This document shows, in pieces, positions 18,554 to 35,316 of a stretch of DNA of 40,368 nt. The stretch comes from a virus (lineage: Duplodnaviria; Heunggongvirae; Uroviricota; Caudoviricetes), in the IMG/VR virus record IMGVR_UViG_3300013285_000009, positions 76,984 to 117,351 of that record, one strand, 5' to 3'. Each line of letters starts with the position of its first letter. Within the stretch, counting starts at the first letter, position 1. The position numbers and the translations under genes are program-made. Below the pieces are notes generated by a model, which had not been told where the DNA came from, ran no database searches, and saw nothing but the letters and a program-made list of their open reading frames with translations.

Positions 18554-19897
18554 ATGAAATTCAGTGATCTATTCGAGGGTACCACCCCACAATTGCCCGG
18601 TGCTGTACCGGGCGTTAAAGTAATGTCTATGGATCAGTTCCTGGCACAATCGGGTGACGAGCCCGAAGAGGAAGAAGTTGCAGAAGCTGCCCCAGAAGTT
18701 CCGGAACGCAATGAACATCTGGCTAGAATCCGCAAGTTATCCGGTTTGGGAGAGGCTACTGAACTACCTGCACAACAACGTGAACTTGGTGGTAAAGAGT
18801 TTCAAGACTACATGACACGTATCAAGGGTACCGATGACATTGATAAAAAGACTGGTGAAATCAAAGTAAACAAAAAGGGTATCCCACAATACACTACGGG
18901 CAAGACTAAGGGCGATAAGTTCAAGATGCCTTATGTTCACCGTAGCAGTGCTATTGAGTACTACGACGAAGGTGGACAACAGTATAATGAAGCAGCCGTG
19001 GTTAATGCGCTAAAACAACGTCCTAAGAAGTTGTTAAAGCAAAATGAAAAGATGAAGCACAGTAACGGAGACTTTGAACAGTTCTTCAACGTAGGCTTTG
19101 CTGCGTTAACAGGTATTGCAGTAGATGAATCAACTGGTAAGCTTATCGTGGTTAATACTTGCCCGGGCGCAGGCTCATGTAAAGTTGATTGTTTTGCTAT
19201 GAAGGGTGGTAAAGTTCAATTCAAAGCTGCTTGGTTAAGTGACGGTCGCATTTTAACTTACTTGTTGAATGACCCAACTGGTTTCTTCAATCAATTGAGT
19301 GCTGAGATTTCCAAAGAAGAAAAAGATGGCTTAAAAGGATCAAAAGGATTCGAGGCAGGTTGGAAAGTAACAGTTCGTTGGCATGATGCAGGCGACTTCT
19401 TCTCACCAGAATACTTGGACATGGCGTTGAAGATGGCTGCTGCTCACCCTAACGTTAAGTTCTATGCTTACACTAAGATGGCGGCTGCTGCTCTAGCACA
19501 GAAGCCGGCTAACTTCATTATCAACTGGAGCGAGGGTGCAAACACTACGCAAGAGAAACAAGTTAAAGCAAATGATCCGGCACTAGAGCGTACAAAGAAC
19601 TCGCGTATTGTTCCTGAAAGATTGTTCTACGACTTACTAGCAAAAGACGCTAAGGGTAACTTAGTCAAGACGGCTGATGGTGCATGGCAACCTGCTAGCC
19701 CTGAAGCGTTGAAGGAAATCAAACAGCGTCTTGCTAAAGAGTACGGCATCAGCGCAAACAGCATCTTGTCATATGACGAGTGGATGGCCAAGAATCACGA
19801 GTCCGGTATGAAGTGGAATGTTATCGTGGCACCGGGTGAAGGTGACGTTAGTGCTAACAGTCACGATGTACTGTCAACACTATTGCTAAGACATTAA
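18554..19897 (+). CDS. Gp88-family (radical-SAM-like) protein with long N-terminal extension
   Basis: TCPGAGSCKVDCFA three-Cys cluster, VRWHDAGDFFS, FYAYTK, NFIINWS; GATAAATA at 18491-18498. Confidence 0.75.
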   Translation: MKFSDLFEGTTPQLPGAVPGVKVMSMDQFLAQSGDEPEEEEVAEAAPEVPERNEHLARIRKLSGLGEATELPAQQRELGGKEFQDYMTRIKGTDDIDKKTGEIKVNKKGIPQYTTGKTKGDKFKMPYVHRSSAIEYYDEGGQQYNEAAVVNALKQRPKKLLKQNEKMKHSNGDFEQFFNVGFAALTGIAVDESTGKLIVVNTCPGAGSCKVDCFAMKGGKVQFKAAWLSDGRILTYLLNDPTGFFNQLSAEISKEEKDGLKGSKGFEAGWKVTVRWHDAGDFFSPEYLDMALKMAAAHPNVKFYAYTKMAAAALAQKPANFIINWSEGANTTQEKQVKANDPALERTKNSRIVPERLFYDLLAKDAKGNLVKTADGAWQPASPEALKEIKQRLAKEYGISANSILSYDEWMAKNHESGMKWNVIVAPGEGDVSANSHDVLSTLLLRH

Positions 19898-21243
19898 AAC
19901 CCGTCAAATAATCCTAATCCGGAAGCTTCGTCTTCTGGTGGAACAAAGTTAGGATCTTTACTCAACCAAGTATCATTGTCAGTATATGTGACAGTGAACT
20001 TGGTTTTGTTCATTAGGACCGAAAGACAATCATCAATACAAATTATATTTCTACCAAGATCGTTGATAAAGGTAGCATATTTGACAGTGGTCTGATCACA
20101 TATCTTAGCAGCTTTACTATTACTTTGTCTGGGTTCGAATTCTAGAAAGCATTGATTCCACTTGTGAAAAATAGCTGCATCCATTTGTCGAGAATGAACC
20201 AATGACCCCTTGTCATACCATTCTTTAGCAGTAGCAAACATTTCATAAGCACCAATCACATCTTGTGCCATATTCTTTTTGTTTGTTTCCATAAAGAAAC
20301 TATTAGCAAAGTTCTTAGTCCAACGTTGATTCTCTAACACAAACGTAGGCATCTGTGTCATTTGCTCTAGGAATGCAATACCGTAACTCTCAACTGAGCT
20401 AGGATTGAATGCAACACGGCAACTAGTGATGAAGTCTACTTTCTCTTTACCTATGATACTGATGGCAATTTTGTAATCAGTAATACCCATTTTCTTAAAA
20501 CGTTCTGTAAACTTCTTAGCACCGTTTGCATTAGTCATAACACGTGCAGGAAGTTTGGTTTGTTCAATCAATTCTAGATACAGTTCAGGATTTTTACCTT
20601 CTTCCCATCGACCAATAAACAATACTCCCTCGCGAGGAACGTGGTGTTCTTCAAGTAAACCCTTCTCTGGCATAGGGATAGGCAATTGCCATGCACCTTC
20701 CAATTCAAGTGCATTGAACTTGCTTTGTGTACCCACAAATACACCATTAGTTTTCAATTGCTGACGCATCATTTCATTGACACTATGCAAGAACGGATTC
20801 TTTGTATCTTTGAATATTTGACTTTCTAAATGTGTATATGCAATCATTTGAATACAATCAGAAAGTCCCATCGTGCTAGCAACTTGCACTGTTTCATATG
20901 TGTTACAAACAAATGCATCATACAAATTGTGTTCCAACGCCTCTACTATTGCATTGCGAAAGTTAGCCATACGCTCATAGCAAAAACTATCACCGTACAT
21001 GAAAATAGCACTATGGTCAGTGTACTTCAATGATTCCAATGGGGCAATAATATTAGCACCTGCATCTTGCAGTGCCTTAACAAATTCAGTATTAGCGGGT
21101 TCTTTGTCAGTAATGATATCAACTTTGATATTATGACTATCCATTAGTTCAACGAAACTCTTAGTGAACTGCCCGATACCGCCATGGGGAACTAGTGTTT
21201 GATAACTTACTAGAAAGCCGATTCGTTTACTGTATGTTTTCAT
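19894..21243 (-). CDS. GT-B (GT4-like) glycosyltransferase
   Basis: HGGIGQF, FIGRWEEGKNPE, ESYGIAFLE. Confidence 0.85.
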   Translation of the reverse strand: MKTYSKRIGFLVSYQTLVPHGGIGQFTKSFVELMDSHNIKVDIITDKEPANTEFVKALQDAGANIIAPLESLKYTDHSAIFMYGDSFCYERMANFRNAIVEALEHNLYDAFVCNTYETVQVASTMGLSDCIQMIAYTHLESQIFKDTKNPFLHSVNEMMRQQLKTNGVFVGTQSKFNALELEGAWQLPIPMPEKGLLEEHHVPREGVLFIGRWEEGKNPELYLELIEQTKLPARVMTNANGAKKFTERFKKMGITDYKIAISIIGKEKVDFITSCRVAFNPSSVESYGIAFLEQMTQMPTFVLENQRWTKNFANSFFMETNKKNMAQDVIGAYEMFATAKEWYDKGSLVHSRQMDAAIFHKWNQCFLEFEPRQSNSKAAKICDQTTVKYATFINDLGRNIICIDDCLSVLMNKTKFTVTYTDNDTWLSKDPNFVPPEDEASGLGLFDGF

Positions 21244-21506
21244 TTCATCAAATTCCAAATAATAAATTCATGCTTATCAATGTGGTAGATATCTTCTATT
21301 GGCATCCCCGGACCATCAATGAGTCTCATTCCCGTGTAACATTTTGTGAGCCAGAGACGTTTTCTAGTTAGGAAACATGTTCTTGGCCATAAACAAAAAT
21401 GTAGTTTCCAATGTCGTACACGATTCAGCCCCCAATTCTGAGAACGGGGTTCTTGATCTACCATAGATTCGATTGCCATATTACGCTTTGACTGGAATCC
21501 AGTCAT
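21240..21506 (-). CDS. hypothetical protein
   Basis: TGATG coupling to the queE stop. Confidence 0.6.
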   Translation of the reverse strand: MTGFQSKRNMAIESMVDQEPRSQNWGLNRVRHWKLHFCLWPRTCFLTRKRLWLTKCYTGMRLIDGPGMPIEDIYHIDKHEFIIWNLMK

Positions 21507-22381
21507 CAAGTTCCCCACTCATTTTTGAACAGAGGTACCTGAAGTCTGTCGCTATAACGCATACCAGACTTGATAGCAAAGTCTGCTACTCTACGATTGT
21601 TCATAGCATACACGCTTTCGACTCCACCGACTGGCATCAGATAAGCCGGGCCTTTGAATCCTGCTGATCGGTAATCTGAGTATACTGAAATAGCTTCATT
21701 GGCATCATCTTCAGTTGCAATTACAAACTTCAAGTAAGTGTAACCAACATCTTCATACGACAGGATGATTTCGGGCTTGATTGCCTCAGTGTACTTCTCC
21801 CCACTACCGCTTAGCTTGGGACTAACGGAGAATGTTAGCTTGTCATAACCTCGGGCCATATGGGTATCGTAATATTTAGAATTCAATGTCCAGTTCAATA
21901 GATATTGCCTGAATTCAGGAGTTAATTCTTGTGTACCGTTTGTTTCGAATGTTAGTTCGGCAAGCCCGAGCATCTTAGGATGATTCAGCAAGTCTGGATA
22001 AGCACGTTGCCAACCTAGCAATGGTTCACCCCCTGTAATTACAAGATGTTCATCTTGCCAACATTTATACGGAAGCATTTCCATAATACGGTCAACAATC
22101 GCATTGCTAGTGAGCATTGGACTAAGATTTTTAAAACTAGGATGCCAGCTAGCATAGCTATCGCACCCAGTAGACACTAACGGCAAGTCTTCGTATTTTT
22201 CAAATAGATGGGCGACTCGTGAAATCTCGTCTGCTTCATTGCTTAATTCGCCGCGGGGCATTCCAAAGCCGGCGCATTTAAAGTTGCAACCAAATGTGCG
22301 TAAGAACACACTCGGGACACCCATATATCGACCCTCGCCCTGAATGCTATAAAATAATTCTGCTACTTTTAAATTTGACAT
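21506..22381 (-). CDS. queE: 7-carboxy-7-deazaguanine synthase (radical SAM)
   Basis: ELFYSIQGEG, FLRTFGCNFKC...CDS, ITGGEP, ETNGT, SVSPK. Confidence 0.92.
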   Translation of the reverse strand: MSNLKVAELFYSIQGEGRYMGVPSVFLRTFGCNFKCAGFGMPRGELSNEADEISRVAHLFEKYEDLPLVSTGCDSYASWHPSFKNLSPMLTSNAIVDRIMEMLPYKCWQDEHLVITGGEPLLGWQRAYPDLLNHPKMLGLAELTFETNGTQELTPEFRQYLLNWTLNSKYYDTHMARGYDKLTFSVSPKLSGSGEKYTEAIKPEIILSYEDVGYTYLKFVIATEDDANEAISVYSDYRSAGFKGPAYLMPVGGVESVYAMNNRRVADFAIKSGMRYSDRLQVPLFKNEWGT

Positions 22382-22405
22382 AAAATCCTCGTACTGTATT
22401 ACGCT

Positions 22406-22434
22406 ATTATAACGCGCTTTGTACAGAAAGTCAA
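22406..22434 (-). promoter_or_regulatory. sigma70 promoter for queE (TTGACT-N17-TATAAT)
   Basis: 17-bp spacer; the -35 overlaps the upstream TGA. Confidence 0.75.
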
Positions 22435-22763
22435 GTCAAGGATGGCCAGTCTCTGTACAAAGCATGTTGAATGTTGCCCGAAACAAATTGATTGAAGCTT
22501 TTGTGCTTGTCTTCAAGCTCACCTTCTAACGGGGCAACTCTTTGGAATGCAGTTTCTAGTTGGGCCATGTCATTGAATTCAATCATGATGTGCCACTCTG
22601 GTAAATCTTGAATGCTTCGAAAACCCATCTTGCATCGTGTTATTCTGTACGACACTAATTTGTCTTCTGACTTCAAGTGATCCAAGAAGCCCTTCATGTT
22701 ATTAACCCAATCTATATCACTGATAGGGCCTTCTTTATCTGCCCATATATGGTATATATCCAT
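22431..22763 (-). CDS. hypothetical ferredoxin-like/dimeric alpha-beta barrel protein (DUF6614-like)
   Basis: MDIYHIWAD...YRITRCKMGF...EWHIMIEF; family recalled from memory. Confidence 0.6.
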   Translation of the reverse strand: MDIYHIWADKEGPISDIDWVNNMKGFLDHLKSEDKLVSYRITRCKMGFRSIQDLPEWHIMIEFNDMAQLETAFQRVAPLEGELEDKHKSFNQFVSGNIQHALYRDWPSLT

Positions 22764-23965
22764 TATTTTCTCTCCGGGAAATAATCTTGTTGTGTACCTT
22801 CTCTATGCACATCACTAGTGATACAGTGTAATCCACCGTCCCAAAAGTATCGGTGTCTAAAGTTTACAACATGCGGTGTGATACCGTGTCGTTCAAACGC
22901 CTCAAATACTTTCTCATTATAATTATTGCAAACTACATTCTGTTGGTCAATTACTAGCATGTTCACATCAAAAACGGTTTCTTCTACAAAACCAACCCAA
23001 TGATCTAACCAACCTTCGACAAACTCAGTGAATTCATCATTCAACTCTTCGCCGGGTACCCACCACTTTCCGTAATTCTTTATCTTTAAATCTCTGAATG
23101 GTTTGACTAATTCCCAGCTTTGATTAGGCAGGAATACAACTTCCCATCCGGGAAAGGTTTCTTCGTAATTAGATAAATCATGTAGTGAAACAATCAGTCC
23201 GGGTTTAACAGGACAGAAAACGCCGTCACTGTGACCGCCGGTTTGTAACACATGGCATCTATGATCAGTAAATCTTCCCTTAAAGTCACCCTCCATTATA
23301 GCGGTATGCTGTAATGCAGCATGTGTACCAAAATACAAATCCTTACCTATTCGAGTAGTTTCGGCAGCATTATAATGTGATAACCTATTACCTGCACCTG
23401 TTATTATAGGATTGCCGGCTTGTTGAATAGTTGCTAGTACATCACCCCAAGTCATTTTATCATAGTCAGCATCAGAAGCCAACTTGGTGTAAGCCGGACT
23501 ATTGACACCGTCGGGTATCATTATAGAAAATAGTTCATCGTATATTTCATCAGAAATAGATAACCATTCGTCTCGGTTTGTAGGGGCGGTGCCGGGCCAA
23601 TGATCTTTACGAATAGAAGACCAATTATCTTTTGCATTTCTCCGTAATTGCACATTTGTATTAAAATAGAAATCAGTACCTAGCATAATTGAATCATCAC
23701 GCGGTACCATTGGTGGGGAGCGAATCTTGCCGGTTGGATTCAAATACAATCGATAATCATCAAATACATTAGGACGTAGTACCGTTACACCAAAGCTGTT
23801 GAGTACTGCTATTAGTTGTTGATAATCTTCTTCTGTTTCACGAGCGATTCTCTCCATCACTACCCTAACTCTAGCATTAGTAATGAATGAGTAGAACTCG
23901 GGATTATAGGATCTACCCACAATACAAACTTTAAGTGGATCCCAATGTTGGTAAACTGAATACAT
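22763..23965 (-). CDS. amidinotransferase (glycine/inosamine-phosphate amidinotransferase family)
   Basis: HWDPLKVCIVGR, PRD, GGHSDG (His), DGGLHCIT (catalytic Cys): pentein fold motifs. Confidence 0.85.
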   Translation of the reverse strand: MYSVYQHWDPLKVCIVGRSYNPEFYSFITNARVRVVMERIARETEEDYQQLIAVLNSFGVTVLRPNVFDDYRLYLNPTGKIRSPPMVPRDDSIMLGTDFYFNTNVQLRRNAKDNWSSIRKDHWPGTAPTNRDEWLSISDEIYDELFSIMIPDGVNSPAYTKLASDADYDKMTWGDVLATIQQAGNPIITGAGNRLSHYNAAETTRIGKDLYFGTHAALQHTAIMEGDFKGRFTDHRCHVLQTGGHSDGVFCPVKPGLIVSLHDLSNYEETFPGWEVVFLPNQSWELVKPFRDLKIKNYGKWWVPGEELNDEFTEFVEGWLDHWVGFVEETVFDVNMLVIDQQNVVCNNYNEKVFEAFERHGITPHVVNFRHRYFWDGGLHCITSDVHREGTQQDYFPERK

Positions 23966-23997
23966 TTTATTCCTTAACTAAATATACGTATATTTAT

Positions 23998-24663
23998 ATG
24001 CAAATACATTTCTCAAACAATTTTGGAAAGTTTACACAATATGACTTTACCGTAACTTCCGTAACGGCTGAAGTCGGTGACGATGAACATTTGCTTGCAT
24101 TGCAGCAAGGCTTTCTTTGGAGTAATAATGCATGGAGACAATGCAGAAGCACCAGAGTATTACTAGCAGAAACAAATTATAATACATATGCTGATGCAAG
24201 TATATTGACTGAGTATGATTATGATGAACTAGTGCTTATCAATGAAAAATATATTGCCTCTAGAGGATACGCTTACCATCCCGCTGATTCACACATTTCA
24301 CCCATAGATACTATTTGGGGATACTATCACGATACTACACTGATTGCCTGGAGTAGAATTCATAACTACAACGGGGCAAAGGAAACTGCATACTTCGCAT
24401 GGGATAGTGCTGATATGAGCTTGCGAGTAGGAACAAAAAGCCTAGAGCATGAGATTGCATGGGCTAAGCAGTTGGGCGATGAATATCTTTATATGGGTGC
24501 CGGATACGAAACATGTTCAATATACAAAAGCCGTATGCAGGGTTTCGAATGGTGGACCGGTTCAGTATGGAGTAAAGATATAGATCAGTATGTAAAATTG
24601 TGTGAGCGTGAAACCAGCGTAAACAATTTTAAAGACTTTGAATCTATTATTTACGCCAAGTAA
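23998..24663 (+). CDS. ATE1/Bpt-like aminoacyl-tRNA-protein transferase
   Basis: AYFAWD...LRVGTKSLEHEIAWAKQLGDEYLYMG...CSIYK matches the ATE_C pattern; CTAAATA at 23978-23984; start ATG 23998. Confidence 0.7.
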   Translation: MQIHFSNNFGKFTQYDFTVTSVTAEVGDDEHLLALQQGFLWSNNAWRQCRSTRVLLAETNYNTYADASILTEYDYDELVLINEKYIASRGYAYHPADSHISPIDTIWGYYHDTTLIAWSRIHNYNGAKETAYFAWDSADMSLRVGTKSLEHEIAWAKQLGDEYLYMGAGYETCSIYKSRMQGFEWWTGSVWSKDIDQYVKLCERETSVNNFKDFESIIYAK

Positions 24664-25141
24664 CTATATCATCGATATCTGATTGTGTCCAGGTATCGTA
24701 ATAACCCGTAGACGCAATCTTGTCTGATGCTGCATTCAATATAGATAGCGGTGCTACTAAAATTAGCCCACATGGACCGAAGTTCATATGCACACCGTTG
24801 ATATTCTCAACAATATCAGGGTGATCTTCTAGAATCACAAAGTCTTTTGGCATCAGTTCTTTGTTCAATCGTATAGCCAATTCTTGCAATATAGCAGGAG
24901 CAATATCCTTGTGGTCGAAACATATGACAGCAATTTCCATTTTGTCAAATACTGATAGTGATTCATTGACTGCACTCTCTATGCCAGATGCTTCGGTAAA
25001 GATTATCTCAATCTTATTATAGATTCTTGCCTGTCTTGCATATGGGCACGGTGGCCAGTTATTCAGTGTTACATTAGGTTTTTCAAGAAAATTAATTATC
25101 CAGTCGGATAATTGTTTGATAATGACGGGTTGATCTAACAT
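24647..25141 (-). CDS. DUF1415-like protein
   Basis: WIINFLE...NWPPCPYARQA, ILEDHP; family recalled from memory. Confidence 0.55.
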   Translation of the reverse strand: MLDQPVIIKQLSDWIINFLEKPNVTLNNWPPCPYARQARIYNKIEIIFTEASGIESAVNESLSVFDKMEIAVICFDHKDIAPAILQELAIRLNKELMPKDFVILEDHPDIVENINGVHMNFGPCGLILVAPLSILNAASDKIASTGYYDTWTQSDIDDIVTWRK

Positions 25142-25411: not shown

Positions 25412-25600
25412 TTAGTTACTGCCATTCTTCACCCATAGCTCCAAAGCCTTTGCAGGATAAATCTGTACTGAACCTCGTTCAGTAGCACTTTCAACTGCAT
25501 AACCCTCCGGAGTTAATTCAGTTGAATACGTACCAACAATTGTTCCGTGCCATTGTGACCCGGAAACCTTTTTTACTAAATCACCTAATTTAAATTTCAT
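25412..25600 (-). CDS. dfrB: type II (R67/DfrB-like) dihydrofolate reductase homologue
   Basis: [36 protein letters not shown]...GSVQIYP: [10 protein letters not shown] and the VQIY active-site motif are intact. Confidence 0.88.
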
Positions 25601-26106
25601 ACAAACAAATCCTCATTCCATTCACGGTGACCTTCGCGGAAAGCCATATTGGCCTGTGTCTCGCGCACCTCTACTTTATAGCACCAGAGACGTGCAGCTT
25701 CGCCTTCACCCCACATTTCAGGAATGTAAACACCGTTGACATACTTATAAAGCATATCGCTAAGGCCTTCGCAACCTAACTTTGGTAAGACAACAATCTT
25801 AGCCATGTTCTTTTCTTGTAGCATTTTGAATGTAGCCATTTCTGGATCATCTTGTGCTACGATAAGCGTATGGTCGAATTGGCTCTCTAAAGTCTTTTTC
25901 AACTCTTTCAGCCCACCGTAGTCAGCAGCCCAATTACGAACATCCAATTCATTTGTTCCAAAGTAGAACTTCATGCTAAACGAGTAGCCGTGAATTAAAT
26001 TGCAGTGCGAATCCGACCGCCATTGACGATAAGCACAAGGGAATGCATCAATGTACTCTTTTGTACTTGTATATTTGTATGCGACTGGGGTTAGTGTTGT
26101 TGCCAT
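25597..26106 (-). CDS. queD: 6-carboxy-5,6,7,8-tetrahydropterin synthase
   Basis: HCNLIHGY (CxxxHG), FDHT, GCEGLS, VEVRET. Confidence 0.88.
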
Positions 26107-26182: not shown

Positions 26183-26413
26183 TTACCAGAGGCCGCGATT
26201 CCAACTTGACGACCAAGTTGTTTTGGATAACGGAATCCCTGTTCTCATAATTCGGGTAATCAACGCTGATTTACTAATTGTTTTTTGCAAATCAGCCTTT
26301 AGTTGAGTGCATTCTTTTTGATATCTGCATTGCTTCGATGTATTATCTTGTTTAAATTTATCATACAGTGAACAGTATGATTGGTACGGAGTGTTATCAA
26401 GTGGACAGGTCAT
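26183..26413 (-). CDS. hypothetical protein
   Basis: Operon packing. Confidence 0.55.
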   Translation of the reverse strand: MTCPLDNTPYQSYCSLYDKFKQDNTSKQCRYQKECTQLKADLQKTISKSALITRIMRTGIPLSKTTWSSSWNRGLW

Positions 26414-27023
26414 TTGGGGTATTTTTCAATATGAAGTATTTTTCAATATGAGAATTTATAAAAACTTTCAACTCAGTGTGATTTGTTGGTTTTGGTGTTA
26501 TTATTGACCGGGCCTGGATGAATGAAATATCTTCGTAATACAAATTTAAATCAACATGACATGTTGCCAACAATTCGTCAGATCTCCTATTACATTTAAG
26601 TATGAAATTTATTATGTTCGGGGCTATTTCATCATCTAACGGTATTACATCTAGTGGGTATATCCCCGCAGCATGGTATAACCAAATTAGACGAAAATGT
26701 TCTATGTAGTGGCTTGTTATTTGATTTAACAGATTTTTTCTACGGATACTTACTATTGAACAATTCTTATTTTTTATAGAAGCTGACACCGATTCATGGT
26801 ATTTTACGACATCATGACCGTGAACTTTTAATATGTATTGATCATTTGTTTTACTAAAATCTAAAAATTCAGCGTGTCTTTCAGGTGAGCTGTTTGGTTC
26901 GCCGAAATCTCGCAGAAATATGCCTCGCGATTTCATATTTTCCTGAATAGCAAACATAAGCGCCGTTGAACCCGTGCGTGCGTTGGATACTATAATGATT
27001 GGGAATTTGGTCAGACTATGCAT
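26397..27023 (-). CDS. Stf0-like sulfotransferase
   Basis: IVSNARTGSTAL (PAPS loop), IRRKNLLNQITS, LYYEDI; start ATG 27023. Confidence 0.75.
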   Translation of the reverse strand: MHSLTKFPIIIVSNARTGSTALMFAIQENMKSRGIFLRDFGEPNSSPERHAEFLDFSKTNDQYILKVHGHDVVKYHESVSASIKNKNCSIVSIRRKNLLNQITSHYIEHFRLIWLYHAAGIYPLDVIPLDDEIAPNIINFILKCNRRSDELLATCHVDLNLYYEDISFIQARSIITPKPTNHTELKVFINSHIEKYFILKNTPNDLST

Positions 27024-27477
27024 TTTTATTTGATGCCTCGACCACTCGTTTGCGCAGACTACTAGAACTAAATGAATGGTCACGCCCATTGAATACCAAT
27101 TCAATGCCTCGTCGAGCACATATATCTTTACCCGTAAACTCTTTGTCTATGTACTCTACCCCTAGAATACGGACATCGATCGGTAGAGTAAGCAGAATAT
27201 CTTCAAGGTCCTTCTCTGTGTTGTAGACTACAATTTCATCTACAAAACGAACAGCACTCAAGCTAATTTGTCGCTCAACAATACTTTGGATGGGTTCATT
27301 TTTTTCAGGACGGTCCCATTGAGCATTATTTTGCAATGCAGCAATAAGGTAATCACAATGATTCTTGGCTTGACTAAGCATAGCAATATGTCCCGCATGA
27401 ATCAAATCAAACTGAGAAAAAGTAATCCCAATCTTCAGCCCCTTGTCTTTCAGTTCTTTGATTTTATTGAATATCAT
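27016..27477 (-). CDS. cytidylyltransferase (TagD/RfaE-II-like)
   Basis: FSQFDLIHAGH (HxGH), ERQISL, HSFSSSSLR. Confidence 0.9.
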   Translation of the reverse strand: MIFNKIKELKDKGLKIGITFSQFDLIHAGHIAMLSQAKNHCDYLIAALQNNAQWDRPEKNEPIQSIVERQISLSAVRFVDEIVVYNTEKDLEDILLTLPIDVRILGVEYIDKEFTGKDICARRGIELVFNGRDHSFSSSSLRKRVVEASNKNA

Positions 27478-27902: not shown

Positions 27903-28130
27903 TCACACTAGTTCCTCGACAATACCTAAAATTTCTGCTACGATAAAGAACCAACCCGCTTCGGGTAGGCCCATCATAATCAATGATGCACCTGCAGCAA
28001 TACGTAGTACGCTTTTAACAAGGCTGACATAAAAATGTCCCTTGCGTGTGTCTTTGGGTTGAATATTAAGCTTAGGTGTATCTGCGCAATTACAGTCTCT
28101 ACCTTGATTGCAATTTTGATTACAACTCAT
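27903..28130 (-). CDS. small membrane protein with N-terminal CNQNCNQGRDCNC motif
   Basis: TAATG coupling with folE; C-terminal hydrophobic helices. Confidence 0.7.
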   Translation of the reverse strand: MSCNQNCNQGRDCNCADTPKLNIQPKDTRKGHFYVSLVKSVLRIAAGASLIMMGLPEAGWFFIVAEILGIVEELV

Positions 28131-28804
28131 TATCGTCCTCTTGCCAATTGATAAAACTCTGCACGGGCGGCTGGATCACTTTTGAATCCGCCACCTAGTT
28201 TACTAGTGACAGTTGAACTACCTGTATCTTCTACACCCCGGGCGGCAACGCAGTAATGTTTGGCATCGATCATTACAGCAATATCGTCTGTGTCCAAAAT
28301 GTATTGAAGTGCATAGAATACTTGCTCAGTCAAACGCTCTTGAATTTGAGGACGCTTGCTGAAGTATTCAACAATACGATTGATCTTGCTCAATCCTAGA
28401 ACTTTATCTTTTGGTACATAAGCAACAGTAGCTAGACCGGAAATAATTACAAAGTGATGTTCACAATTTGATTGTACATTGACATTACGTTCGCATACCA
28501 TTTCGTTGTATTTCATCTTGTTATCGACCGTAGTACACTTGGGGAATGCATCGTAGTCAAGGCCGTAAAAGACCTCATTTACGTACATTTTTGCAACACG
28601 CTTTGGAGTATCCATCAAACTATCATCGCTTAGGTCAAGACCTAGTGTTTCCATGATAGCTTTGAAGTGACCTTCAATGATGTGAATCTTATCGGTGCGG
28701 ATAAGTTTGTTTGGCGTGGATGGAGTTTCTACTCCCATCATAACTAGATGATTGTGAACTCGTTGACCCAATTCTGGATCGCATTTGGTTTTGTTGTATG
28801 ACAT
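28130..28804 (-). CDS. folE: GTP cyclohydrolase I
   Basis: DTPKRVAKMY, SNCEHH, GLSKINR, RPQIQERLT, HYCVAARG. Confidence 0.96.
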   Translation of the reverse strand: MSYNKTKCDPELGQRVHNHLVMMGVETPSTPNKLIRTDKIHIIEGHFKAIMETLGLDLSDDSLMDTPKRVAKMYVNEVFYGLDYDAFPKCTTVDNKMKYNEMVCERNVNVQSNCEHHFVIISGLATVAYVPKDKVLGLSKINRIVEYFSKRPQIQERLTEQVFYALQYILDTDDIAVMIDAKHYCVAARGVEDTGSSTVTSKLGGGFKSDPAARAEFYQLARGR

Positions 28805-29253: not shown

Positions 29254-30255
29254 TTATTTCCTTAAAGTTTTGTTTTCTATTGTATAATCTAACTTCTTCA
29301 TCCAGTCATATGTAGTCTGGACGATGTTGGTTAGATCGCTGTGTGTAGGCTTCCAATCAGTTGCTTGCATAAATCTATTAGGATTTGCAATCAACGTTCC
29401 CGGATCACCTTCTCTTGACCGACCGTAACTGTAATTAACTTTGTCACCGGTAATCTTTTCTACTTCATTGATAATTGACAAATTACTAGTTCCCTTACCC
29501 GTAGCTAGATTATACGCATTAAACGTGTAAGGTGCAAGCTTTTCGGCTAACGTCACTGCTGCCAAATGCGCAGAAGCAATATCGGTAACGTGTAAGTAAT
29601 CTCTGATACATGTGCCGTCGGCTGTATCAAAGTCTGACCCGTTTATCACCAATTTCTCTTTAGTTATTAAACTGCGGACTACTCTGGGTACCAAATGTGT
29701 ATCATCGGCTGTGTTGCCCAACTCACCGCCCGCATCACATCCACATGCATTGAAGTATCTGAGTGCGATACCCTTGAAGCCATGTGCATAGCAATGATCA
29801 TTAATCATGGTCTCTGCCATCAATTTACTGCGGCCGTACGGACTAACCGGGTCAGCAATATCGTATTCATCCCATGGACCAATACAGTTATTACCGTAGA
29901 TTGCTGCACTGCTACTAAAGACAAATGTACCGTGCCATCCCAATTCATGCAGGGTTTGCAACAAGATATTAGTCTTAGCAGCATTGTTATCATAATATAC
30001 ACCGGGGTTAGTGATACTAGGTCCCACTAAGCTAGTGCCGGCAATATGAATCACTGCAACTGCATTGGAATTTACTACGGCGTGTGCTGCTATAGTTGCA
30101 AAGTCATCTTTGATAAAGGTATCTAGAAACTCTACCCCATTGGACGATTTACAACTTTCATCAATACCGATTACTGTGTAGCCAGCATCTTTGAAAGCCT
30201 TTGCAGTATGACTACCGATGAAGCCTAATGCTCCGGTTATTACTACCGTCTTCAT
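29254..30255 (-). CDS. galE: NAD-dependent UDP-glucose 4-epimerase
   Basis: GALGFIGSH, FSSSAAIYG, YGRSK, LRYFNACG, DGTCIRDYLHV. Confidence 0.9.
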   Translation of the reverse strand: MKTVVITGALGFIGSHTAKAFKDAGYTVIGIDESCKSSNGVEFLDTFIKDDFATIAAHAVVNSNAVAVIHIAGTSLVGPSITNPGVYYDNNAAKTNILLQTLHELGWHGTFVFSSSAAIYGNNCIGPWDEYDIADPVSPYGRSKLMAETMINDHCYAHGFKGIALRYFNACGCDAGGELGNTADDTHLVPRVVRSLITKEKLVINGSDFDTADGTCIRDYLHVTDIASAHLAAVTLAEKLAPYTFNAYNLATGKGTSNLSIINEVEKITGDKVNYSYGRSREGDPGTLIANPNRFMQATDWKPTHSDLTNIVQTTYDWMKKLDYTIENKTLRK

Positions 30256-30758
30256 TCTTCTTCTCCAGCGTCCTCATCATCGCTGAAATCACTAAAGGGC
30301 CATGCAGCACTTGGAATTAACTTTGGTACTTCAACGTCATCTTCTTCGTCATCCGCAGTGAATTCTTCACCAGTGTCTAAGTTTTTGAGTCTCAGTGGGC
30401 CTTGAAAGTAGTACATTGTGTCATCGTTACTCCAACCTAATTCTTCGAGGCCTTCGTAGTAATTTTCAGCCCATGCTTCTTCAATTGACTCGCGGTCTTC
30501 ATCTGACATGTCAGCCGGCCAAGTCCAATCGGCCCAGCAACCATCATCAAGGTCATCTAGTTCCCACTCGTATTCATCACCTGCCAGATCGTACTCCTCG
30601 CCACCCGACAGGTCAATGTCGGGCTTAGTATCACTTTCGCAATAGAACTTACCCCAACGATAACCTTCTTCCCGGATGATAAGCTTCCCGTCTTTGTACC
30701 AGTGCTGCCGTTCTACCGCACTCTTCTTATACTCGGTCGTTAATTCCCATGTTGCCAT
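30252..30758 (-). CDS. highly acidic hypothetical protein
   Basis: Asp/Glu-rich; operon packing. Confidence 0.75.
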   Translation of the reverse strand: MATWELTTEYKKSAVERQHWYKDGKLIIREEGYRWGKFYCESDTKPDIDLSGGEEYDLAGDEYEWELDDLDDGCWADWTWPADMSDEDRESIEEAWAENYYEGLEELGWSNDDTMYYFQGPLRLKNLDTGEEFTADDEEDDVEVPKLIPSAAWPFSDFSDDEDAGEEE

Positions 30759-30759
30759 T

Positions 30760-31935
30760 TTAGTATTTTCCTTCTCTAGTATGTTTACGATAATCGGTGC
30801 TCATGCGTAGCATAGATTCACCCTTGCCTTCCAAGATATCAATCACCCGATCGATAGTTCCGTTATTATAATCGCTAATCTGTCCCATCAGTGGACTAGG
30901 CTTCTTCAATAGCTTTTCCAACTTGTCTAGTGCGTCTTCTATACTCCAAGGAACGTACAAACGGGTATGATCGTTAGAAAATGTTTCAGGGAAACTACGA
31001 TAAGCAGGATAAAGCACATTACAGCCAAGCGCATCTGCCTCGGAGACCGTGTTCGAGACCCAGTCTTGTAAAGCACAGTTGAACACCACGCGAGAATTAT
31101 TAACAATATTGTAGTAATCATTTTTACCTAGGTCCTCATAAACATGTAACAGCCCTCTTTCCTGCATTAAGCGAGTGCGATCCATGTAGCTATCATTGTT
31201 GCTTTTCAATTTACTGCCTGAACATACAGCAAACTCTACACCTGATTCAGGGTGACGGTTAAACCATTCTTCAATTAGATCCATATAGAAGTCTGGTTGC
31301 TTCTCTTGATCCCAACGTGCAGAAAAGACTACACGATGTTTGCGATCACTAAATGGCTTGATAGATGCAACACGAGATTGAACTTCACTCTTGCCAAATG
31401 CTAACCCACTGATATTGTAGATTGGAGCCTTCCAACCCGCAATCTTCATATGCATTACCATTTCTTCATTAGTGGCTAATACACCATCCGCAAATGAGTC
31501 CACCATGCGTTCATAGTGACCCATAAAGTCAGACATTTTCCAGACATGAACAAAGTCATCAGGATCAATAGATTGAGCGAGACAACGAACGAAAATTCTC
31601 GGACGTGACGACTCTGGGATTTGTTTGAGTATGTAGGGTAACGACTCAATCCCAGGCTGGAACATATCTTCGAAATAAATAACATCTTCATTGCTTAGTT
31701 CTCCTGCCTTCATCATCTTTACCAGATTCATCAGTTGTGACATACCGAAGTATGTACGACCATGTGCATCTAATACTTGCCCTGTTACAATAGCTTGATC
31801 GTTACCAAGTGTTTCGCCGGGTACAATGATATAATCAATACCACGGCGATTGAACACACTTTCGTTCCAGTCTTGCAACTGCAATGTGTAGCGTGCTTTG
31901 TAAGGCTCCAAGCCCATGTAATAAAGTTTTCTCAT
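30760..31935 (-). CDS. GT-B glycosyltransferase
   Basis: VVFSARWDQEKQP, NCALQDWVSNTVSEADALGC, YPAYRSFPE. Confidence 0.8.
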   Translation of the reverse strand: MRKLYYMGLEPYKARYTLQLQDWNESVFNRRGIDYIIVPGETLGNDQAIVTGQVLDAHGRTYFGMSQLMNLVKMMKAGELSNEDVIYFEDMFQPGIESLPYILKQIPESSRPRIFVRCLAQSIDPDDFVHVWKMSDFMGHYERMVDSFADGVLATNEEMVMHMKIAGWKAPIYNISGLAFGKSEVQSRVASIKPFSDRKHRVVFSARWDQEKQPDFYMDLIEEWFNRHPESGVEFAVCSGSKLKSNNDSYMDRTRLMQERGLLHVYEDLGKNDYYNIVNNSRVVFNCALQDWVSNTVSEADALGCNVLYPAYRSFPETFSNDHTRLYVPWSIEDALDKLEKLLKKPSPLMGQISDYNNGTIDRVIDILEGKGESMLRMSTDYRKHTREGKY

Positions 31936-32129
31936 TTTATAAATCTTGGAATACGTTCTACTGTACCTGCATATTGAAACGAGTCCAACATAGGCAACAG
32001 TGTTGCTACATCATTTGCAAGATGACGTTCAATTAATTTATGCTCACCGTCAATTAACATAAAGTACAATTTGGTTGTACCCTCGTCTAGTTGTGGCTTA
32101 AAAATATATTCTAAATCTTCTATTATCAT
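31932..32129 (-). CDS. hypothetical protein
   Basis: ATGA coupling on both sides. Confidence 0.55.
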   Translation of the reverse strand: MIIEDLEYIFKPQLDEGTTKLYFMLIDGEHKLIERHLANDVATLLPMLDSFQYAGTVERIPRFIK

Positions 32130-32890
32130 ACGTCTTTTCTCTCAATGTCTTCTTCAATGCACTCTTCGCCATATTGAATCTCTACAATACGACATGGTGT
32201 GTCAAACGGATTACGAATTCTATGCCAATTACCTTGCGGGATTACTATTTGCTTGTGTGGTGTCATAGTCAACACGGGTAGTGCATAACCACTAGTCATT
32301 TGTTGATCTACTTCACACCTACCTTCAGTGACATGCCAGAATTCATGACGTTTATAATGTCTTTGCATACTTAACGTCTTACCTGGCTCAATAGTAAGTT
32401 CTTTGACCTTACACCCTGCTACATCATGTAGTATACGATAGTATCCCCATGGACGCAATGTTTTCGGCTGTTTCCATTCTTGCAGAATCCAACTACTTGA
32501 ATTCAGTTTGTTTTCGCCGCCGGTACCAAAAACAAACTCTAAATTATCATCTACTAAGTCCATCTCTGGGATATTTTCTTTAGTGCGGTCACCGCCGTTG
32601 GCAAATATAATTGTTGCCTCAGGGTACATTGCCCTAACACCCGTGATGGCATTTTTACTGCTACCATCAGCATCTGGATAATGAACCACTTTGTCCACCA
32701 TACTCAGTGAACTAATAATCTTATCTCTTTCATATATCTGCATAAAAGGTTGACCTTTTTTACGGGCCAACCATTCATCACTGTTCAACCCGACGATTAG
32801 TTTGTCGCCGAGTTGTTTAGCAGACTTGAAGTATTCGATATGACCCGAATGAATCGGATCAAAGCCTCCAGTGACTAATACGATTTTCAT
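32126..32890 (-). CDS. cytidylyltransferase fused to a cupin (mannose-6-phosphate isomerase type II C-terminal-like)
   Basis: TGGFDPIHSGH, FANGGDR, NSSSWIL; then RPWGYY, LSMQRH, EFWHV, EIQYG. Confidence 0.9.
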   Translation of the reverse strand: MKIVLVTGGFDPIHSGHIEYFKSAKQLGDKLIVGLNSDEWLARKKGQPFMQIYERDKIISSLSMVDKVVHYPDADGSSKNAITGVRAMYPEATIIFANGGDRTKENIPEMDLVDDNLEFVFGTGGENKLNSSSWILQEWKQPKTLRPWGYYRILHDVAGCKVKELTIEPGKTLSMQRHYKRHEFWHVTEGRCEVDQQMTSGYALPVLTMTPHKQIVIPQGNWHRIRNPFDTPCRIVEIQYGEECIEEDIERKDV

Positions 32891-33093
32891 CGGCGAATCA
32901 AATCATCCCATTGATTCTTGGCGTGCTTGTTTGCCATCGCCTTGCTGAACTGACGAAACGCATAACTGCGCATGTCATACATAGTAGCCTCATCAAACGG
33001 GTAGCCGAAGTCCACACAGAATTCGCGGTACAGATCAAGATCGTCAAACAGTTGAGTGACACGGGGGTTTGTTTGAAAAGTTGGCTTTGCCAT
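32887..33093 (-). CDS. hypothetical protein
   Basis: AAGGA RBS; operon packing. Confidence 0.75.
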   Translation of the reverse strand: MAKPTFQTNPRVTQLFDDLDLYREFCVDFGYPFDEATMYDMRSYAFRQFSKAMANKHAKNQWDDLIRR

Positions 33094-33103
33094 TTTATTT
33101 TCC

Positions 33104-33556
33104 TTAGATTACGAGGTTGTTGAACGAAATTGTTCTATTATAAAAAATTGTGCATCCATTCTCTCCGTCTTCCGAGACTTCGATATGAACATCACGCTCT
33201 GGGTAACGACTAGCGATTTGTTTATATAGATCATCGCTAATCATTTCGCAGCTTTTGAAATTCAATTCTAACACACCTTGATATAGATTGTCAAGCCATC
33301 GTTTGAATTGAATAAACTCAATATCCCGATCATTATGAAATACTTCAATTGATACGCGGAAATGAAACATGTGCCGATGTGGGCTAGCCAAAAAGCTAAC
33401 ATCATATTCATCACCTGTCTTTAGTGCAGGATCAGTTGCAGCAGCAGGATAGCAATGTACACCCTCACGTTGAAAGGTTACGAAAATCATTCTCTTTGCT
33501 GCATCGCTAATGCGTGTGGTTTTCTCTTGTAGTGCCATACTATGTTGCTCAGTCAT
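33104..33556 (-). CDS. dpdL: QueD-paralogous T-fold protein, DpdL-like (putative CDG decarboxylase)
   Basis: LASPHRHMF (LxxxHRHxF) instead of CxxxHGH; SCEMISDDL and VSEDGENG T-fold motifs. Confidence 0.65.
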   Translation of the reverse strand: MTEQHSMALQEKTTRISDAAKRMIFVTFQREGVHCYPAAATDPALKTGDEYDVSFLASPHRHMFHFRVSIEVFHNDRDIEFIQFKRWLDNLYQGVLELNFKSCEMISDDLYKQIASRYPERDVHIEVSEDGENGCTIFYNRTISFNNLVI

Positions 33557-33746
33557 TTTGTTCTTCCTCTTCTTCCTCGAGGGCACGAACTCTTGTTAAT
33601 TCATCTTGCAATTTTGTACGCTGAGTACTTAGGTTGGCTAACCCCGACTGATCCGCTTCAGGGCGCCGCTGCAAGTCAGCAATTTGCACGTCAATCAATC
33701 GACGTGCTTCAGTGAGGTGCTTGATTTTTATTGAGTATGATGACAT
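33549..33746 (-). CDS. small coiled-coil protein
   Basis: Heptad pattern; ATGA overlap. Confidence 0.7.
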   Translation of the reverse strand: MSSYSIKIKHLTEARRLIDVQIADLQRRPEADQSGLANLSTQRTKLQDELTRVRALEEEEEEQND

Positions 33747-33762
33747 ATTATTCTTTCTAAAT

Positions 33763-35316
33763 TTATTCGCCCAACGCTTCGATCATAGCATCATCGCTGT
33801 CTAGTTCTTCTTCGTCAATAACTGTTACGGGGGCATCTTCGGTAAATAATTCATCAAACATAGTTAGAGAATTTACTGTCTTCTTACCGCTGTAACCTTG
33901 ACTACCGCTTTGAAACTGCATCCAATATCGGGTATATGATTCAATCATGTCTAAGCTTTTCTGACGATCCTTCAAAGCAAAAATCTGATCAACTACTTCA
34001 CTGAATACAATTTTCTCAAATGTATCATTAGTCAGCATCTTAGGAACGACACCCTGATCATAACGACGATTTGCTTCCTGTACTGCTGTCATGTGTGACC
34101 ATACATTATGACCTTGCAATAAAGTATAGCTCAGCGTATCCCAACTTGTCTTTGTTTCTTTACCATGCTGACCGATGAATCCCTGACCTCTATAACACAG
34201 ATCACTTAGTGTCATTTTATCAGTAATTGGTGAGTCAGTAAAGACTTTATGGATACCTTCAGCTAAAACAGCATCCCGATACTTGCGTGTGTCAGTTGAA
34301 TAGGACTTTTTCTCAGCCGTCTTTTCCATACTGTATGCCCACTTTTTATTGTTTTCAATAGTCGTATTGAAGTATGCAAGGCCCTTTGCGGCACTAAAGA
34401 ATGGGCTTGCGCAGTCAAACGTAATCTGTAGACTAGGGTTGTGATGCTTTCGGATAGAACGTTGGACATCACTAAACATCACAGCATATTCTAAGATGCT
34501 CGTACCCAGACAGTGAATTAAATCATGCTTACCTTCTTCTAACAACCCGTCATGGATAATGTTAACCAACCGTTTAAGGAATAAGTGAACGTCGATTTTG
34601 TTCTGACCTCCCATGGCCCAACCATTAAAGTGAGTCTCTGGGTAGATATTCGGGTCGCAATACTTCTTCATCTCATCATACCATGCATCACTCTGTGTAT
34701 GATTCAATCCCTGCAATACGTTTAAGAACTTGCACTTGCCCGAACGATTAGCAATGAAATACTCATTGTTGATGTGTGTGGCTGAAATAGCATCCTCAAT
34801 GGTCTTGATACCATGTAGAGATTTACCGTTCTTATCTTGCATACCGTAAGTGCGCAAGGACTGTGAGGGGATATCTAAACACATACCGTAATCCATGTAT
34901 GTGTCCATCCAGTTCAATACAGCTTTACGCTTGATCATGGCCTTGGGACAAGCAGGGTCTTTCCAGTCTGCGGGCCATTGACCTTTAAGAATCTGGAAAC
35001 CACCGGAGTCCCCTAACATAAACGTACCCGCTTCACGATTTCGGATGATGTTCTCCTTAGGATCAACGACAGTAGTATCTAAGTTGGCGTGACCTGCTGA
35101 GTACAAACCCCACTTGTAATAGAACAATCCCTTTTGGCTATTGAGAAAGTTCAATGTTTCTACGTCTTGAATCTGTGCAGGCAGTCTTGCTTGCTCAAAG
35201 TAATTTTGTCCGGCTTGTTGCTTACCTAATCCGGCGATATAGAATGAGCTAACTGCAGGTAAGAACAGGGCCCAGTCTGGATTGTGTTTAGCGGTAAGAT
35301 TATCTTGTTCTATCAT
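33763..35316 (-). CDS. dpdA: TGT-fold guanine transglycosylase, DpdA-like
   Basis: GDSGGFQ, LDIP, VLQG, GWAMGG, HCLG, FDCASP; no CxCxxC zinc motif of tRNA Tgt seen; deazaguanine gene context. Confidence 0.75.
   Translation of the reverse strand: MIEQDNLTAKHNPDWALFLPAVSSFYIAGLGKQQAGQNYFEQARLPAQIQDVETLNFLNSQKGLFYYKWGLYSAGHANLDTTVVDPKENIIRNREAGTFMLGDSGGFQILKGQWPADWKDPACPKAMIKRKAVLNWMDTYMDYGMCLDIPSQSLRTYGMQDKNGKSLHGIKTIEDAISATHINNEYFIANRSGKCKFLNVLQGLNHTQSDAWYDEMKKYCDPNIYPETHFNGWAMGGQNKIDVHLFLKRLVNIIHDGLLEEGKHDLIHCLGTSILEYAVMFSDVQRSIRKHHNPSLQITFDCASPFFSAAKGLAYFNTTIENNKKWAYSMEKTAEKKSYSTDTRKYRDAVLAEGIHKVFTDSPITDKMTLSDLCYRGQGFIGQHGKETKTSWDTLSYTLLQGHNVWSHMTAVQEANRRYDQGVVPKMLTNDTFEKIVFSEVVDQIFALKDRQKSLDMIESYTRYWMQFQSGSQGYSGKKTVNSLTMFDELFTEDAPVTVIDEEELDSDDAMIEALGE

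Follow-up and report, generated by a model that had tools for sequence, protein, structure and literature searches.

FolE, QueD and QueE make 7-carboxy-7-deazaguanine (CDG), and DpdA enzymes swap guanine in DNA for a deazaguanine base. In the Cellulophaga phage phiST a FolE-QueD-QueE-DpdL-DpdA gene set without QueC yields the deoxynucleoside of 7-deazaguanine (dDG), with guanine wholly replaced by 7-deazaguanine (PMC10516641). DpdL is defined by the signature LxxxHRHxF, which replaces the CxxxHGH of QueD (Cui, Hutinet et al., NAR 2023; PMC10516641); its role as a CDG decarboxylase is a proposal, unproven even for phiST (heterologous expression failed), and the DpdA and DpdL of phage ACP17, expressed in E. 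coli without the intervening transferase gene, gave no dDG (PMC10516641). The DNA of the Pseudomonas jumbo phage PA5oct is G-modified and restriction-resistant, its chemistry is unidentified, and it is cut by nucleases that sense hypermodified DNA (PMC12191111). Here, we analyse a block of genes (positions 19894-35316) within a stretch of 40,368 nucleotides (the window), the last 40 kb of the 117-kb IMG/VR phage record IMGVR_UViG_3300013285_000009, in which a QueC-free module of this kind is joined by a gene for a glycosyltransferase of 391 amino acids (aa). The linkage of this gene to DpdL across very different phages is our main finding, and our best reading of it, tentative and held with a confidence a little short of even, is that the phage carries glycosylated 7-deazaguanine in its DNA.

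The block shares with the phiST system (PMC10516641) FolE, QueD, QueE, DpdL, a DpdA-type enzyme, the lack of QueC and a position beside replication genes; it differs by its added sugar-donor genes, by a DpdA-like protein of 517 aa where phiST has the short DpdA3 (259 aa), and by the 391-aa-type transferase that phiST lacks. The QueC-independent 7-deazaguanine module with a DpdA-type inserting enzyme, which a preliminary description of this DNA had put forward as a candidate new pathway, is supported, but it is the already published DpdL (phiST) pattern and not a new pathway. With PA5oct (Wroclawvirus; PMC12191111) the window has in common the DpdA subtype (34% identity), the order DpdA-transferase-DpdL and the B-family DNA polymerase (36490-39207; 46% identity), whereas the PA5oct cluster is compact, lacks a second transferase (454 aa) found in the window and shows, in the 25 kb searched around its dpdA, no homolog of the GalE, cytidylyltransferase and cargo genes listed below.

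Among DNA-modifying transferases, the RB69/DLP3 arabinosyltransferases act on 5-hydroxycytosine (one phage enzyme was tested in vitro, the others are predicted; PMC13326640), and their nearest folds (MshA, BshA and sucrose-phosphate synthase) are also those of the 391-aa protein, a likeness by fold. Together with the T4 alpha- and beta-glucosyltransferases, which act on 5-hydroxymethylcytosine (5hmC), they resemble the present system in being GT-B enzymes accompanied by phage-encoded sugar-donor genes; unlike it, they glycosylate a pyrimidine hydroxyl, the pyrimidine itself coming from a thymidylate-synthase homolog, while the window pathway would lead to a deazapurine that has no hydroxyl.

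The record is estimated to be 34% complete, which implies a jumbo phage with a genome of roughly 350 kb. In 50,697 phage records megablast gave no match to the block, and no near-identical cultured phage was found. Since >200 IMG/VR contigs encode a DpdA-like protein with 73-93% identity to that of the window, and homologs of the 391-aa transferase form >8000 clusters at 90% identity in metagenomes (808 representatives at 50% identity), the phage belongs to an abundant environmental (freshwater jumbo-phage) clade. For the comparison with close kin every open reading frame (ORF) of the block was mapped onto 80 related IMG/VR loci, 28 of which span DpdA to QueE and are called the relatives below; a separate sample of 80 diverse viral DpdL loci was used to ask how often the 391-aa transferase accompanies DpdL. 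All gene classes named for the block in the preliminary description were recovered where it had placed them, all on the minus strand save an ATE-like ORF, alone on the plus strand. The core genes are:

28130-28804, minus strand: FolE, GTP cyclohydrolase I (Pfam GTP_cyclohydroI, 7.6e-62; 28/28 relatives)
25597-26106, minus strand: QueD-type PTPS (6-carboxytetrahydropterin synthase), 169 aa (Pfam PTPS, 1.2e-14; 49% identity to ACP17 QueD; 28/28 relatives)
21506-22381, minus strand: QueE-like radical S-adenosylmethionine CDG synthase, 291 aa (phrog_2076, 4.4e-46; 46% identity to BUCT-ZZ01 QueE; 28/28 relatives by choice, as these were selected for spanning DpdA to QueE)
33104-33586, minus strand: DpdL, 160 aa, QueD-like T-fold, proposed CDG decarboxylase (LxxxHRHxF signature; tblastn match to phiST; 28/28 relatives)
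33763-35316, minus strand: DpdA-like guanine transglycosylase, 517 aa, PA5oct type (motifs, synteny, weak fold match)
30760-31935, minus strand: GT4-like GT-B glycosyltransferase, 391 aa, the key accessory gene (AlphaFold2 and Foldseek fold, donor motifs, DpdL linkage; 26/28 relatives)

Linkage of the 391-aa transferase to DpdL

By tblastn the 391-aa transferase matched only 4 of the 50,697 phage records, which stem from three phages (BUCT-ZZ01, BUDD and ACP17), and each match was situated 0-1.6 kb from the DpdL of the same phage (66% identity for the transferase of BUCT-ZZ01). The family profile added PA5oct, Phosso and BCSR5, raising to six the cultured phage lineages with the transferase beside DpdL, and detected no transferase in phiST, RHph_I1_18, Bakedbeans and Ahp1, which have DpdL alone. 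When metagenomic members were sampled at 29-39% identity, all seven that could be checked had DpdL within ~1 kb; an eighth, known from its neighbouring ORFs only, has a 120-aa ORF and a PTPS gene next door. In the diverse sample the transferase was present at 39 of the 80 DpdL loci. The 36 full-length transferase-DpdL pairs are on the same strand without exception, with DpdL upstream in 27, a distance within 1.5 kb in 30 and adjacent or overlapping genes in 13; median pairwise identity in these pairs is ~27% for the transferase and ~42% for DpdL, and the two distance matrices show a modest correlation (Mantel r 0.30, p 0.001).

The transferase accompanies three types of DpdA (the PA5oct type, the ACP17 type and a ~340-aa 'DSGA' type), and its constant partner is DpdL, not one particular DpdA. 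DpdL occurs without the transferase (in phiST, with measured dDG, and in others), and the transferase was never found without DpdL in the loci examined, an asymmetry that fits a transferase acting on the product of DpdL. The preliminary description had suggested that accessory enzymes decorate the base. What stands of this is chiefly the 391-aa transferase, which in widely differing phages is almost invariably a neighbour of DpdL, and further the GalE-type epimerase, a 153-aa cytidylyltransferase and the 454-aa transferase, which recur in the clade and in some others; the link drawn between dpdA and the amidino-, sulfo- and ATE-like transferase genes fell away, as the co-occurrence check in the 28 relatives returned these genes from the closest one (L003) only or, for the sulfotransferase at >=40% identity, from none.

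A search of bacterial genomes with a distant member of the transferase family returned nothing, and a smaller alignment retrieved 8 contigs binned in metagenome-assembled genomes (MAGs) of unrelated phyla. Most of them show the phage-type order polymerase, DpdA, DpdL, transferase, and on account of this gene order a reading as bacterial islands was set aside for one as mis-binned phage contigs. Contigs L181-L187, which carry the polymerase, a 243-aa protein, DpdA, DpdL, the transferase and GalE in MAGs that bear the names Haliscomenobacter (two contigs), Phycisphaerae, Rickettsiales, Chitinophagales, Syntrophomonadaceae and Chloroflexi, are probably such mis-binned contigs and not a host signal. 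On Logan contig SRR12203296_1930 (L088) a DpdL-transferase-QueE unit faces a divergent PA5oct-type DpdA-like gene and adjoins genes for a resolvase and a RES-domain protein, surroundings that point to a mobile element or plasmid and not to a lytic phage.

The AlphaFold2 model of the 391-aa protein (built on an alignment of 52 sequences, representatives at 29-58% identity) has a two-Rossmann-domain GT-B fold, with a predicted local distance difference test score (pLDDT) of 95 and a predicted template modelling score (pTM) of 0.92. Foldseek matched it to MshA at 2.9e-12, and VIA Z scores reached 24-27 over ~320-340 residues for the GT4 enzymes MshA, BshA, sucrose-phosphate synthase, PimA, LmbT and SenB. 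The donor (diphosphate-binding) motif SRxDxEK, the counterpart of 'GRLDHNKNP' in an alignment with WlaC/PglH (E 1.6e-4), has invariant R207 and K212 and almost no variation at S206 and D209; D291-x7-E299 is nearly invariant in the family as well, its first acidic residue being Asp where the E-x7-E of GT4 enzymes has Glu. Because the donor-binding and D-x7-E motifs are conserved family-wide, the transferase looks catalytically competent. The protein stays below the Pfam gathering thresholds (Glyco_trans_1_2, 21.5 bits vs 25; Glycos_transf_1, 17 vs 26.4), while a few close homologs do carry precomputed Pfam matches. A complex prediction of the transferase with DpdL scored 0.00, which speaks neither for nor against binding. 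The fold neighbours were discarded as a guide to a DNA versus a small-molecule acceptor (dozens of GT4 enzymes tie at Z 23-27), and so was a 655-aa 'fused' family member, the extra C-terminus of which is low-complexity sequence with no second domain.

The deazaguanine genes and the DpdA-like protein

The DpdL signature of the window reads L66-ASP-H70-R71-H72-M-F74, an exact fit to the LxxxHRHxF of Cui 2023. Its residues L66, H70, R71, H72 and F74 are invariant in 17 members of the DpdL family, as are E41, G42, H44, D86, R87, E90, S112, C113, E114, E139 and D140. By tblastn the protein matched phiST CGPG_00067 (1e-7, 32% identity over 72% of the query), and it is 50% and 62% identical to its counterparts in ACP17 and Phosso. 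Its genomic context comprises FolE, QueD, QueE and a DpdA-like gene, with no QueC found in the ~34% complete record. As to the two assignments made in the preliminary description, that of DpdL is borne out by the signature and the phiST match (1e-7), and that of the DpdA-like protein drew no Pfam TGT (tRNA-guanine transglycosylase) match and is upheld by motifs. In the Vibrio phage Bakedbeans the DpdL match covers the C-terminal third of an annotated 383-aa protein (gp176, L085:9245-10396), the N-terminal part of which has no detected similarity to any DpdA type; gp176 could be a DpdL fusion or the result of a mis-called start.

The QueD-type protein of the window has CxxxHGY in place of the canonical CxxxHGH zinc motif. 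A six-frame pattern count over the loci fetched gave 33 matches for HGY (BUCT-ZZ01 among them) and 20 for HGH, which makes HGY a frequent subtype of phage QueD; it occurs together with DpdL, in which HRH is kept and the Cys is missing. A 62-aa ORF (25412-25600) that overlaps the queD stop is conserved in 6/28 relatives. The NCBIfam QueE models match only the N-terminus of the window QueE.

In agreement with the preliminary description, which had seen no QueC, QueF or ArcS, profile searches of the 117-kb record and its relatives detected none: QueC, QueF, ArcS and Pfam TGT are missing from the record, and in relatives that are 25-67% complete QueF and ArcS went undetected in four (up to 250 kb), and QueC in five. 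A QueC candidate in a 250-kb relative was rejected, as its match is confined to the N-terminal PP-loop (22.7 bits) and it also matches two other PP-loop families and sits between desaturase and Rieske genes. Weak QueF matches in relatives (17 bits, short of the cut-off; frame lengths 241-248 aa) were likewise dismissed; where they could be placed, they fell a few kb downstream of dpdA, the site of FolE, which has a related fold.

The 517-aa DpdA-like protein contains the motif LGDSGGFQ (D103-S-G-G-F-Q), and its D148-IP, H268-x-L-G (HxLGxS) and F-D301-C-A-S motifs align with those of the DpdA-like proteins of ACP17, BUDD and BUCT-ZZ01. Its closest cultured homolog is PA5oct EST35_0316 (34% identity, 3e-74), two genes away from the PA5oct DpdL. 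Against Pfam (E<=0.01) no TGT or DpdA match was obtained, with no PF01702 in the entire 117-kb record; sequence and family-profile searches against solved structures found no TGT, and blastp against the phiST DpdA3 (CGPG_00065) produced no alignment at an E limit of 10 for the window protein and only E 2.7 for its PA5oct homolog. Atlas features placed it with TGT-like clusters (0.93) and DpdA clusters (0.89). The AlphaFold2 model, made from a shallow alignment, was poor (pLDDT 55 overall, 65-88 for core residues 110-300); from this low-confidence model the top Foldseek match was the DpdA 7ui4 (DNA preQ0 insertase, E 8e-3), followed almost only by TGTs, none at E<=1e-3. We treat the protein, on its motifs, synteny and low-confidence model, as DpdA-like and as a distinct PA5oct-type subfamily, not a phiST-type DpdA3. 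The bacterial Dpd restriction-modification system (DpdA/B/C; 7ui4) is alike in its TGT-fold enzyme that inserts a 7-deazaguanine base into DNA, the top though weak fold match; unlike what is seen here, that enzyme inserts preQ0 and needs DpdB, and no similarity to the window protein was detected at the sequence level.

Sugar-donor genes, cargo and gene order

The genes that may supply or transfer sugars, and the small ORFs lying among them, are:

29254-30255, minus strand: GalE, UDP-glucose 4-epimerase, 333 aa (4e-61 to solved UDP-glucose 4-epimerases)
27016-27477, minus strand: small cytidylyltransferase-like protein, 153 aa, TagD/RfaE-II-like (Pfam 5.3e-10; PDB glycerol-3-phosphate cytidylyltransferase 4.5e-12; 26/28 relatives)
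32126-32890, minus strand: fusion of a cytidylyltransferase-like domain and a mannose-6-phosphate-isomerase-type cupin, 254 aa (Pfam CTP_transf_like 1.4e-12, MannoseP_isomer 2.1e-21; PDB ECT and TagD; 14/28 relatives, variable)
19894-21258, minus strand: second GT4-like glycosyltransferase, 454 aa (Pfam Glycos_transf_1 1.1e-4, below cut-off; Atlas GT4 clusters 0.97-0.99; 22/28 relatives)
32887-33093, minus strand: conserved 68-aa ORF (28/28 relatives; no family; stop overlaps the start of the next gene by 4 nt)
30252-30758, minus strand: acidic 168-aa ORF between the transferase and GalE (no family; minority of relatives, variable)

A true GalE ortholog is confined to L003 and L004, both close kin. 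In 5 of the 6 sister-group MAG-binned contigs that have sequence past the transferase, the very next gene is GalE-like, the order in L168 is DpdL, transferase, epimerase, QueD, and an epimerase gene stands after DpdL in L119 and upstream of DpdA in L146; GalE-type epimerases thus recur beside the DpdL-transferase pair in separate lineages. On the minus strand, DpdL, the 68-aa ORF, the cytidylyltransferase-cupin gene, a 65-aa ORF, the transferase, the acidic ORF and GalE form a chain with 4-nt overlaps or gaps of 1-10 nt, which fits a single translationally coupled unit.

Two genes were considered as general partners of the module and rejected. A small cytidylyltransferase lies in or near the cluster only in BUDD among the cultured phages, and the 454-aa transferase, the GT4 class of which derives from Atlas features alone, is absent from PA5oct, ACP17, BCSR5 and Phosso and is an accessory of this clade; it is also found inside the BUCT-ZZ01 cluster, and it has homologs in Erwinia jumbo phages that are not among the DpdL matches.

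In several close relatives a 264-289-aa ORF comes straight after the small cytidylyltransferase (L007:12717-13511, L060:6639-7508), at the place where the window has a sulfotransferase-like gene. Its N-terminus resembles adenosine 5'-phosphosulfate kinase, and the ORF has a weak cytidylyltransferase-like stretch, which hints at a kinase and nucleotidyltransferase pair for donor activation, or at a sulfation theme. The same region of the relatives holds homing endonucleases, Bax1-I genes, a class II aldolase and a 277-aa epimerase of the short-chain dehydrogenase/reductase (SDR) type that adjoins the 454-aa transferase. A second group of sugar genes, distant from the deazaguanine module, is present in a 250-kb relative (L097; G001:C1:143189-146390), where genes for an NAD-dependent epimerase/dehydratase and a DegT-type sugar aminotransferase come after that of a full-length thymidylate-synthase homolog (354 bits).

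The remaining genes of the block are:

22763-23965, minus strand: amidinotransferase family, 400 aa (PDB AGAT 1.3e-13, also StrB1 and SxtG; 1/28 relatives, L003)
23935-24663, plus strand: ATE_C-like ORF (arginyl/leucyl-tRNA protein transferase-like; Pfam ATE_C 3e-06, 28.3 bits vs a cut-off of 25; 1/28 relatives, L003)
22431-22763, minus strand: DUF6614 protein, 110 aa (Pfam 8.5e-23; 1/28 relatives, L003)
24647-25141, minus strand: 164-aa ORF (phrog_28122, function unknown; 1/28 relatives, L003)
26397-27119, minus strand: probable Stf0-type sulfotransferase (only from Atlas features, 0.96-0.97, and Atlas structure, TM ~0.7 to Stf0-type clusters; 0/28 relatives at >=40% identity)

Because these five genes occur in one relative (L003, the closest) or in none, we take them for cargo specific to the strain, lodged in a plastic region and outside the module. 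Phage homologs of the amidinotransferase come from marine viruses and one cyanophage only, none of them among the DpdL matches. The sulfotransferase-like ORF has no Pfam match and no ortholog at >=40% identity in the 28 relatives that span the cluster, and its translation likely begins at residue 33, close to 27023.

At the lower edge of the minus-strand block a convergent plus-strand ORF (18554-19897; Pfam GP88, PF17338, 3e-24) ends 4 nt inside the gene for the 454-aa transferase. Past the other edge, the DNA polymerase is a single 905-aa ORF (36490-39207), and the PA5oct homolog is annotated as two pieces (L001:5584-10810) with a Hef-like homing endonuclease gene between them. A perfect sigma-70 consensus (TTGACA, 17 nt, TATAAT, extended TG) lies on the minus strand at 26152-26124, just upstream of queD, and sites with 11/12 positions are found at 22434-22406 (upstream of queE) and 36482-36454 (upstream of the 243-aa gene that leads into dpdA); in the promoter and terminator scan as a whole, site counts did not exceed those of shuffled controls.

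Possible products of the module

From the observed gene identities, synteny and co-occurrence we infer the chemistry, the DNA target and the transfer of a sugar as follows. FolE, QueD and QueE would convert GTP to CDG, DpdL would convert CDG, by the published proposal via decarboxylation to 7-deazaguanine, and the DpdA-like transglycosylase would exchange guanine in the phage DNA for the deazaguanine base. The 391-aa transferase would most likely move a sugar from a nucleoside diphosphate (NDP)-sugar onto the deazaguanine, probably after its insertion into DNA, with the 2-amino group as the candidate acceptor site by analogy with natural products. In this clade the donor, and perhaps a second sugar, may be provided by GalE or the SDR epimerase, the 153-aa cytidylyltransferase and the 454-aa transferase.

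The natural-product precedent is huimycin, in which N-acetylglucosamine is carried on the 2-amino group of a 7-deazaguanine core, a step attributed to the glycosyltransferase HuiG (PMC7439116). The huimycin transferase gene lies beside FolE, QueD and QueE homologs, and in huimycin as in the dapiramicins (PMC7439116) the sugar is on the 2-amino group of a 7-deazaguanine-derived base; in contrast to the window, this is an actinomycete secondary metabolism that starts from a free base derived from preQ0 and has QueC but neither DpdA nor DpdL, and the likeness is one of chemistry and gene context. Circumstantial support for a glycosylated deazaguanine is given by the modified G of PA5oct, by the null result obtained with ACP17 when the transferase was left out, and by the fold neighbours that the 391-aa protein shares with the phage DNA arabinosyltransferases.

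Several points weigh against a glycosylated 7-deazaguanine in DNA. The only DpdL phages with measured DNA, the phiST group, lack the transferase and have plain dDG, which offers no hydroxyl group and so leaves the acceptor atom a matter of speculation. The DpdL loci without the transferase belong largely to one phiST-like lineage, so that independent contrasts are fewer than the raw counts, and co-occurrence inside the close clade reflects shared ancestry. With a record only ~34% complete QueC could lie elsewhere in the genome, and the DpdA-like assignment draws on motifs, synteny and a low-confidence model. The GT4 fold fits a DNA or a small-molecule acceptor equally (a solved pterin glucosyltransferase reaches Z ~24). 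Furthermore, sugar genes are also found far from the module, as with the epimerase and DegT aminotransferase by ThyA in the 250-kb relative, and some of the sugar genes of these phages may serve another glycan.

Plain dDG is a serious rival, if a less likely one. It would have the module make dDG (or the deoxynucleoside of CDG, dCDG) as in phiST, while the sugar genes, brought here by a plastic early-gene region, serve virion or host-surface glycans or another DNA base. The dDG of phiST-type DpdL phages, the plasticity of the region (where relatives have homing endonucleases, Bax1-I and further cargo of unrelated kinds), the further sugar genes elsewhere in the genome of a relative and the Erwinia jumbo phages that have homologs of the 454-aa transferase outside the DpdL matches are all in keeping with it; what it leaves unexplained is why, in all lineages examined, the 391-aa family adjoins DpdL on one and the same strand, in many cases with an overlap, in spite of median identities as low as ~27% and ~42%.

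A soluble glycoside of a deazapurine or pterin as the joint product of DpdL and the transferase, a metabolite or inhibitor comparable to huimycin, dapiramicin or the cyanobacterial tetrahydrobiopterin glucoside, with DpdA inserting the unglycosylated base, appears improbable. Pteridine glycosides do follow the gene logic of FolE, a PTPS-like enzyme and a GT4 transferase, the base that HuiG glycosylates is a free deazapurine, and the nearest folds include the small-molecule transferases MshA, BshA, LmbT and SenB. The solved cyanobacterial UDP-glucose:tetrahydrobiopterin glucosyltransferase BGluT (PDB 5zes, 9v0l), which has a GT4-like fold and acts on a product of a FolE and PTPS pathway, fits the 391-aa model at Z ~24; yet this match is no better than that of many GT4 enzymes, the acceptor of BGluT is a pterin side-chain hydroxyl, and its pathway lacks QueE, DpdL and DpdA. 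In sampled loci with enough flank, moreover, the pair is always found with CDG-pathway genes, usually with a DpdA-type gene and among replication genes, and the gene lists that were read showed none for export or self-resistance.

A phage-specific multi-step hypermodification, in which the amidinotransferase, sulfotransferase and ATE-like transferase decorate the base as well, strikes us as very improbable: the genes are interleaved with queD and queE, on the same strand save the ATE-like ORF, and the CDG carboxylate could in principle be derivatised, but only 1/28 relatives (L003) has the amidinotransferase, ATE-like, DUF6614 and 164-aa genes and 0/28 the sulfotransferase-like gene (at >=40% identity), the phage homologs of the amidinotransferase fall outside the DpdL matches, and the ATE-like ORF lies on the opposite strand. 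Least credible of all is a DpdA-like protein that acts on tRNA or is no transglycosylase, since against the lack of a Pfam TGT or DpdA match, the lack of a sequence match to solved TGTs and the low confidence of the model stand DSGGFQ and the other shared motifs, the DpdA and TGTs as top folds, and a gene that adjoins DpdL as in PA5oct, the DNA of which has modified G.

Glycosylated 7-deazaguanine in the DNA of this phage may have its counterpart in others, and we advance, as a possibility still more tentative, that PA5oct, ACP17, BUCT-ZZ01, BUDD, Phosso, BCSR5 and the present clade hold this base, which would be the first sugar-hypermodified purine reported in any DNA, and that variable NDP-sugar cassettes diversify the glycan between strains. 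A literature search found no paper on a glycosyltransferase in DpdA/DpdL systems or on glycosylated deazaguanine in DNA, and the DNA glycosylations found described are all on pyrimidines (5hmC; 5-hydroxymethyluracil, 5hmU, as base J; and 5-hydroxycytosine). A deazapurine bearing a sugar would, if the prediction is true, constitute a new class of DNA base, and with six or more lineages with the DpdL-transferase pair in culture the prediction is open to direct test. It could then bear on the failure of the ACP17 DpdA and DpdL in E. coli and on the modified G of PA5oct, and on how such phages might escape the glycosylases and nucleases, described of late, that attack DNA with 7-deazaguanine.

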